Source: Rhynchobatus australiae (lineage: Eukaryota). Taken from it: a stretch of DNA of 64,000 nt. Below the pieces are notes generated by a model that worked only from the letters and a program-made list of their open reading frames with translations, was not told the DNA's origin and made no database searches. Within the stretch, counting starts at the first letter, position 1, and every line of letters begins with the position of its first letter. Location of the stretch: the NCBI GenBank assembly GCA_034780895.1, contig JAUZTB010000011.1, positions 38,221,230 through 38,285,229 on the forward strand, given 5' to 3'. This document shows positions 18,138-19,333 of this stretch, piece by piece. A program made the position numbers and the translations under genes.

Positions 18138-18505
18138 TTAAATAAAACTTTTGTAATCAATATCCATGAAGTTTCAATTTAAACATTGTTCACATCTTCT
18201 ACTTTAATACTTTATGAACTTTTTATCGTTAGATAAATGTGATAACCAGCACCATGTTTATACATNNNNNNNNNNNNNNNNNNNNNNNNNNNNNNNNNNN
18301 NNNNNNNNNNNNNNNNNNNNNNNNNNNNNNNNNNNNNNNNNNNNNNNNNNNNNNNNNNNNNNNNNATGGTGTTAAGAAATGAAATAAACTGGTTGTATTC
18401 TTTTAAAGAAAGTACATCCTACCCCAAATTAAATAGTCAGCAAAAAGATGTTCATTGCTATATAACTCTACCCTCCCAAAATGTGACCAGAATGCCAATC
18501 AGTAT

Positions 18506-19033
18506 CAGTTTGTATACTTGTATAAAAAGAAAATAAATCAGGTCCCATTTGGGCAAACTTGCTGGTTAAGAAATCCTTACGGTTTTGAAACAAGTTATTT
18601 TTCCAGTTGTGCACTGAAATCACTGAAAAGTCTCCAATGCATTTCCGTCTTGAGTTGAGAGTCTTGCCTTCCTTTATGTTGATGATTTTGCTTCTGGGGG
18701 ATTTTCTCCAGTATCCAGTGTTTTCAAGAACCTAAATAGGCCAGCTGCTTCTCGTACTCGGCTGAACTCAACGCAGAAAGCCCTGCACTTCAATGGACAA
18801 GTCCTGGGCGTTGATTATTTTGTTTCTGATTAAAGACTGGAGGAAGACACATACGAGGTGCACCAAGAGGTTCTGCATGTACTTATCCTTGATTTGTTCA
18901 CAAGTGGAGATACAGTTTGAAATATAGAGGTGAATAAATTCTGGAGGAATATCTGCAGCTGTGGTTAGCCTATTTACAACTTCCATTGAATGAAGAGACA
19001 TATCCATATTTACAAGTACAGAGAAATATTCTG
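18506..19033 (-). pseudogene. CNOT11: 5'-truncated processed CNOT11 retrocopy (3' part of exon 5 + exon 6 + exon 7 + 3'UTR)
   Basis: Exon 5/6 and 6/7 junctions are joined without introns (near 18969 and 18872). A 1-bp insertion near 18780 frameshifts it. Several missense changes. The 3'UTR matches 19161-19333. Confidence 0.93.
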
Positions 19034-19333
19034 GATGCTACTGCAGTGGTCGACTTTACTNNNNNNNNNNNNNNNNNNNNNNNNNNNNNNNNNNNNNNNN
19101 NNNNNNNNNNNNNNNNNNNNNNNNNNNNNNNNNNNNNNNNNNNNNNNNNNNNNNNNNNNNCAGTTTGTATACTTGTATAACAAGAAAATAAATCAGGTCC
19201 CATTTGGGCAAACTTGCTGGTTAAGAAAGCCTTACGGTTTTGAAACAAAACTAGTTACTTTTCCAGTTGTGCACTGAAATCACAGAAAAGTTTCCAATGC
19301 ATTTCCATCTTAAGTTGTGAATCTTGCCTTCCT

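Follow-up and report, generated by a model that had tools for sequence, protein, structure and literature searches.

A processed CNOT11 copy assembled within the 3′ UTR of its parent gene, and the probable origin of this placement in mis-scaffolding

Does the CNOT11 gene of this species carry, inside its own 3′ UTR, a processed copy of its last exons? This is the arrangement that the assembly presents, and a first-pass annotation of the same DNA interpreted it, should the placement be real, as integration of CNOT11 cDNA at its source locus, for example through homology with the 3′ UTR. We consider the question here for the window, by which we mean the whole 64,000 nt stretch of DNA analysed (G000:C11:38221230-38285229; coordinates below are window positions). 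The assembly, G000, comprises 2.23 Gb in 81522 pieces, and its sequence is the same as that of the window across 15001–23000. The scaffold carrying the window is 85.9 Mb long, and the contigs within the window span 595–4976 nt. The copy lies on a contig of its own (18366–19060, 695 nt) with exactly 100 N on either side, at 19061–19160 towards the parental exons and at 18266–18365 towards the distal 3′ UTR. The physical adjacency of copy and parent depends on these two joins alone and is doubtful.

The parent gene is on the minus strand and its 3′ portion is readily recognised. The part of exon 5 that has been copied (21371–21434) has a GT donor and matches the CNOT11 family PF10155 (E 2.6e-12), exon 6 (20783–20879) has AG and GT sites and a PF10155 match in G000, and exon 7 runs from an AG acceptor through an open frame (PF10155, E 8.8e-22) to the contig end inside the 3′ UTR (19161–19531), with the stop codon at 19336–19334. 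Further upstream, the open stretches 28382–28672, 29507–29689, 30482–30697 and 32691–33116 are presumably exons 4 to 1; the last of these, the exon 1 stretch, matched no Pfam family, although three of the four proteins in the scan did. The distal parental 3′ UTR (18112–18265) contains a candidate poly(A) signal, ATTAAA, at 18137–18132, is single copy in G000 and is joined to exon 7 in one of the sequencing runs described below (X7). There were no Rfam matches within the window.

The copy, which is also on the minus strand, begins with the 3′-terminal 64 nt of exon 5 (18970–19033), identical to parent 21434–21371, and continues through exon 6 (18873–18969; 4 mismatches in 97 nt) and the coding part of exon 7 (18674–18872; 14 substitutions and 1 insertion) to a 3′ UTR segment (18366–18673) that differs from parent 19333–19161 by 9 substitutions and a 5-nt deletion. 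No intron separates exon 6 from exon 5 or exon 7, both introns having been removed exactly at the parental GT/AG splice sites. Alignment of 19033–18506 to the spliced parent gives 533 columns, with 500 identical, 27 mismatched and 6 gapped. The resulting identity of 94.9% (500/527 aligned bases) is consistent with the high similarity noted earlier but supersedes the figure of about 90% given at that time. There are two indels, an extra G near 18783, which is a +1 frameshift with an early TGA at 18770–18768, and the 5-nt UTR deletion near 18593. The counterpart of the parental stop is 660 nt downstream of the parental stop itself. PF10155 matches the copy with an E value of 9.9e-33, segment 18771–19031 aligning to positions 23–107 of the 125 in the profile, and a 79-aa ORF (18768–19007) starts at an internal Met, contains part of PF10155 and has a frameshifted end. 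The copy is a real 5′-truncated, frameshifted, intron-free CNOT11 processed pseudogene, and the alignment confirms the first-pass description of an intronless exon 5-6-7-UTR copy with a 1-bp frameshift and truncation at 19033. The stop offset, the 79-aa ORF at 19007–18768, the ATTAAA at 18132 and the 100-N gaps were all likewise found as described. We looked for further copies and saw no second place in G000 for the 695-nt contig, its 27-nt 5′ flank, the distal UTR or PF10155.

Evidence for the copy in related organisms comes from Logan contigs for five of 24 listed runs, none of which is annotated as RNA. Two are from this species (organism A; runs X1 and X11), and there is one each from organisms B (X2), C (X3) and E (X7). 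X1 is possibly the sample from which the assembly was made; X11 is a different sample from a different study, with a depth of only 2.7. Spliced junctions are present in DNA contigs of A, B and C, in four of the five runs (all except X7). They are spanned by X11 contigs at 18880–19017 with no differences, by X1 contigs at 18825–18972, by X2 contigs at 18909–19009, and by X3 contigs at 18658–18912 and 18927–19029. We do not count the missing junctions in X7 as evidence of absence, nor the holes in contig cover (for example X2 at parental exon 7 and X1 at 18973–19198). The four junction-bearing runs also cover introns or flanks. We considered whether the junctions derive from cDNA contamination, and this is ruled out because they occur in four runs that resemble DNA and carry changes particular to each species.

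The copies in A and B have the same 5′ flank, the same 5-nt deletion and 10 substitutions relative to the parent in common, and the retrocopy must therefore predate the split of A, B and C. Twenty-two parent/copy substitutions can be read in B, which agrees with the copy at 11 and with the parent at 10, the remaining site having a third base; at one of the 11 copy-like sites E has the same base, so it was the parent that changed there. Where it is aligned to the parent, the B copy carries another 11 changes that are private to it. The +1 insertion is present in X1 and X3 (organisms A and C) and absent in X2 (organism B).

Depth in X1 indicates that parent and copy are both present in full. A node at 18809–18854, as reconstructed from depth bins, has a depth of 14.5, against 7.1–7.6 in the introns, and corresponds exactly to the 46 nt that are identical in copy and parent, bounded by the differences at 18808 and 18855. 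Because this shared segment has double depth, parent and copy are two full copies. A reading of the copy and parental exon 7 as two haplotypes of one sequence is ruled out by the doubled node and by the full depth of the introns.

With the copy established, the issue is its location, and here the two joins differ. The join at 18266–18365 has a true size of zero in relatives, contigs of both X2 and X7 fusing 18265 directly to 18366. The join at 19061–19160, between the parental and retrocopy contigs, is likely false, and 374 nt are duplicated across it at 92% identity. The most informative contig is from organism E (X7 record 18; 1290 nt, depth 11.8), which runs from intron 6 through exon 7, passes from 19161 to 18505 and from 18366 to 18265, and continues past 17946. 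It carries a single UTR, skips 18506–19160 and has no letters in either gap. We note that this contig represents the ancestral state, with one UTR and both gaps empty, and not the state in A. The first-pass annotation had named, as grounds for rejecting its own proposal, long reads that join 19161 to 18265 through a single UTR and a location of the retrocopy and its flank at another locus. This outgroup contig provides the first half, as a contig and not a long read of A; the locus to which the flank belongs was not found in G000. No contig of organism A in X1 or X11 spans either gap. The segment 18505–18366 was assembled only once (a single G000 match), on the retrocopy contig, where the parental UTR has a hole.

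Joins of this kind are error-prone in G000. We surveyed 181 gaps, each flanked on both sides by 60 nt or more of sequence, in the window and in 40 stretches of 10 kb (20 beside the window and 20 from four other scaffolds). Duplicates anchored at the contig ends flank 13 of the 66 gaps of exactly 100 N, compared with none of the 115 other gaps and none of 300 mismatched pairs (Fisher p 9e-7). Ten of the 13 are near-exact overlaps of 26–51 nt, and three, including the one described here, are joins of diverged copies (82–92% identity). The remaining two diverged joins, among 65 other 100-N gaps, have identities of 82% and 85% and could also be real tandem repeats.

The sequence upstream of the copy is informative in a different way. 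At 19033 the 5′ truncation is joined to unrelated DNA, 27 nt of which (19034–19060) are present on the retrocopy contig; this is unique in G000 at up to one mismatch and likely represents target-site DNA of the true locus. Its best local score elsewhere in the window is 12, within the range of 11–15 for 30 shuffled sequences, and an origin from inverted or internal CNOT11 sequence was rejected, there being no match on either strand. Contigs of X11 (organism A) and X2 (organism B) extend 120 and 167 letters, respectively, past 19060 into foreign DNA that they share, giving at least 147 nt (A) and 194 nt (B) of non-CNOT11 DNA upstream of the copy. The two agree at 28 of the 30 flank letters shown and match nothing in 17945–20130. 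A 30-letter portion of these extensions was used to search the assembly, and the X11 30-mer has no window matches at 3 mismatches and none in G000 at 2 mismatches. We also considered that 19061–19160 could stand for 100 hidden bridging letters; this was rejected, as letters 101–167 of the X2 flank would then cover 19161–19227. X2 contigs are without cover at 19113–19696, where such bridging letters would fall.

The explanation that we favour, and hold with considerable confidence, is that the processed copy resides at another locus and that its short contig was slotted into a hole in the parental 3′ UTR during scaffolding. Its apparent position inside the UTR is, on the evidence of the contigs and joins, likely an assembly error. 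The caveat of homology-driven mis-scaffolding attached to the first-pass annotation is the better reading of the locus. In outline, the germ line acquired a copy of a spliced CNOT11 mRNA before organisms A, B and C diverged. A retrotransposon-encoded reverse transcriptase presumably made the copy, halting in exon 5, and the product would have been joined to unrelated target DNA. The copy has since gained amino-acid changes and, in A and C, the frameshift. With the distal UTRs nearly identical, the parental contig probably broke at 19161, and 18505–18366 would have survived as a single copy on the contig of the retrocopy. That contig would then have been inserted between the parental contig and the distal UTR, with joins of 100 N, by a scaffolder that relied on homology or on collapsed read pairs. 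The true order at the parental locus is likely 19161, 18505, 18366, 18265, the one found in organism E.

The strongest alternative is that the copy is truly in, or just behind, the parental 3′ UTR, as a local insertion with at least 147–194 nt of foreign DNA and tandem UTRs. This we regard as unlikely. The foreign segment would have to come from a template switch or from a later insertion between the parental UTR and the copy, and in either case it is an additional and unexplained element. In its favour is a 690-nt X2 record that extends without a break from the spliced junction of exons 6 and 7, only 30 nt of it lying in exon 6, across 18366/18265 to 18112. Its private changes number 2 in the distal 379 nt and 12 in the proximal 312 (p 0.002), and both its continuity and its parent-like distal part are as expected of a copy truly fused to the working end of the UTR. 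However, low-depth contigs mix the two copies, as is shown by a 641-nt X1 record in which intron 5 and parental exon 6 lead into the spliced junction between exons 6 and 7. The 690-nt X2 record also has the highest depth of the five X2 records (8.61, with the others at 3.8–5.91), as for a partial collapse of copies. It ends at 18112, 20 nt beyond the ATTAAA; a poly(A)-tailed copy would diverge from the parent at this point, which is only suggestive.

Local insertion also draws on what G000 does not contain, as there is no second distal UTR and the flank 30-mer was matched nowhere. In G000 and among the loose contig ends of the five runs we found no second copy of 18265–18112, no poly(A) tail and no 3′ flank, and the 28 other matches in a search of G000 with the distal UTR are all to a short dispersed repeat at query positions 338–449. 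In X1 there are two paths at 18432–18515, with depths of 3.68 and 3.6 (the second derived from bins), which merge at a node at 18366–18461. We take these to be the copy and the parent, but the depths sum to that of one copy and two alleles are also possible. A further point is that differences between copy and parent become sparser towards both ends of the copy (scan p 0.055), as gene conversion between neighbours might cause.

Against local insertion, in addition to the error-prone nature of the 100-N joins, is the rate at which the copy diverges. Between A and B there are 20 differences in 312 positions of the proximal copy and 33 in 1383 positions of CNOT11 introns 5–6 (p 8e-4), a contrast to which intron constraint or CpG decay may contribute and for which the 312-nt stretch was picked after inspection of the data; over the whole record there are 24 differences in 537 (p 0.024). 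Divergence of the copy that is about 2.7 times faster than that of introns 1–2 kb away suits a different genomic or mutational setting. A fuller version of the in-UTR arrangement has the retrocopy residing in the parental 3′ UTR since the ancestor of A, B and C, with a foreign 5′ segment, an mRNA carrying a spliced second set of last exons and a downstream ORF (open in B) for part of the GGNBP2-binding domain, and a distal UTR kept parent-like; this we think quite unlikely.

The proposal of the first-pass annotation, that CNOT11 cDNA recombined into its own 3′ UTR by 3′-end homology to give an mRNA with a downstream 79-aa ORF, is very unlikely. The two sequences are in the same orientation and in exact UTR register, with the contig abutting 18265 and zero letters missing, and the continuity of the 690-nt X2 contig is compatible with it; homology scaffolding gives an exact register too. 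The ATG at 19007 is preceded by A at –3 and followed by G at +4, but this context is inherited from an internal Met of the parent. Recombination of this type predicts parental UTR upstream of the copy, and the foreign DNA found there in both A and B argues against it and is as expected for insertion elsewhere. The parent moreover retains introns 5 and 6 (X1 depths 7.5 and 7.1). The inference that the CNOT11 mRNA carries a downstream ORF depends on the placement and would lapse with it.

Mis-scaffolding of a copy from another locus leaves the question of whether that copy has a function. PF10155 is the CNOT11 C-terminal MIF4G-like antenna domain, and the copy encodes part of it; in human CNOT11 this domain is reported to bind GGNBP2, the construct comprising residues 323–510 (PMC9902336). 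In contrast to the full domain, the ORF of the copy begins inside it, and in A and C the frame is lost before the domain is complete. In A the frame is not intact, with the frameshift and an early stop, and the 118 codons of the A copy have 10 non-synonymous and 8 synonymous changes, to which B adds 4 and 4. With a neutral non-synonymous share of 0.72 at kappa 4, the deficit has p values of 0.10 for A alone and 0.036 for A and B pooled, and at kappa 6 the pooled value is 0.053. This shortfall is weak, and is set against a frameshift in two of the three species. We note that the copy in organism B has no frameshift and no new stop among the differences listed, and its frame may reach the natural stop.

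A functional retrogene, providing at any locus a free antenna domain that could compete for GGNBP2, is extremely improbable, for although the pooled counts (14 non-synonymous, 12 synonymous) are below neutral, no frameshift occurs in the portion of the B copy that is covered and the human domain has a known partner, the copy has the frameshift in A and C, an ORF that starts within PF10155 and covers at most 23–107 of 125 positions as against the 323–510 human construct (PMC9902336), the changes R>L, R>H and F>S at residues common to the parent and E, and neither a promoter nor exons 1–4. The copy is presumably non-functional.

Precise junctions, 5′ truncation and disablement are features shared with processed pseudogenes as these are defined in two retrocopy studies (PMC13320880, PMC11259980). 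Typical examples also have a poly(A) tail and a target-site duplication; neither is seen here, the contigs giving no 3′ end of the copy, and in the assembly the copy sits inside its parent. According to the same sources, retrocopies are fewer in non-mammalian lineages and most are without intact ORFs (PMC13320880), and the pipelines drop candidates that overlap the parent or are within 200 kb of it (PMC13320880, PMC11259980). Catalogues made in this way are therefore silent as to how often copies lie in their parents. A literature search covering titles and the beginnings of abstracts found no retrocopy inside the UTR of its own parent, no CNOT11 pseudogene and no misassembly of this type.

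The joins resemble the products of homology scaffolding. RagTag is described as sorting contigs by reference coordinate and inserting 100-bp gaps where the size is unknown (PMC9753292), and the Zanfona finishing step as joining contigs of short-read assemblies on regions conserved in related species (PMC11225021). G000 is alike in having 100-N joins that often have overlapping or paralogous ends. Paired-end scaffolding on a collapsed UTR would yield the same order.

There is also a partial likeness to a different process. In reverse-transcriptase-mediated intron loss, recombination with cDNA replaces genomic exons and removes introns at the source gene. Here too, the assembly puts spliced cDNA of the 3′ exons at the source locus. 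Unlike in that process, introns 5 and 6 are retained in the parent, and the DNA adjoining the 5′ end of the copy is foreign.

The finding is probably an ordinary processed pseudogene that has been mis-scaffolded. On that reading it matters little in itself, being one more processed pseudogene and at most a presence/absence marker for the clade of A, B and C. Of wider consequence for users of G000 is that its 100-N joins set paralogous contigs side by side (3 of the 66 sampled), because of which other tandem-copy findings in this assembly need read support. Should the placement be true, it would be a germ-line retrocopy fixed within its own transcript, a class that both pipelines, as described in the sources above, remove, and it would make the mRNA of a CCR4-NOT subunit a natural setting in which to test whether a downstream ORF is translated.

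Several other features of the region and of the surveyed gaps are worth recording. At 936–1105, 35 nt (34 identical) flank the 100-N gap at 971–1070, so that the two contigs overlap and the real size of the gap is below zero. A 175 nt repeat pair with 82% identity is arranged end to start across the 100-N gap at 45890–45989 (45725–46164), and may reflect either another join made by homology or a genuine tandem arrangement. On another scaffold, a 574 nt segment is duplicated at 85% identity across a 100-N gap (L048 4253–4352), much as in the CNOT11 case. Just past the candidate poly(A) signal there are two repeats, the end of a very high-copy repeat at 17671–17736, with a summed X1 contig depth of more than 40,000, and a weaker dispersed repeat at 17815–17925, with 28 matches elsewhere in G000. 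Within intron 6, organism E has an (AT)n stretch at 19642–19644 that the window lacks, and X7 contigs break there. Lastly, a GC-rich tandem repeat of about 28 nt is present in three copies (family D1) at 33274–33357, directly upstream of CNOT11 exon 1.
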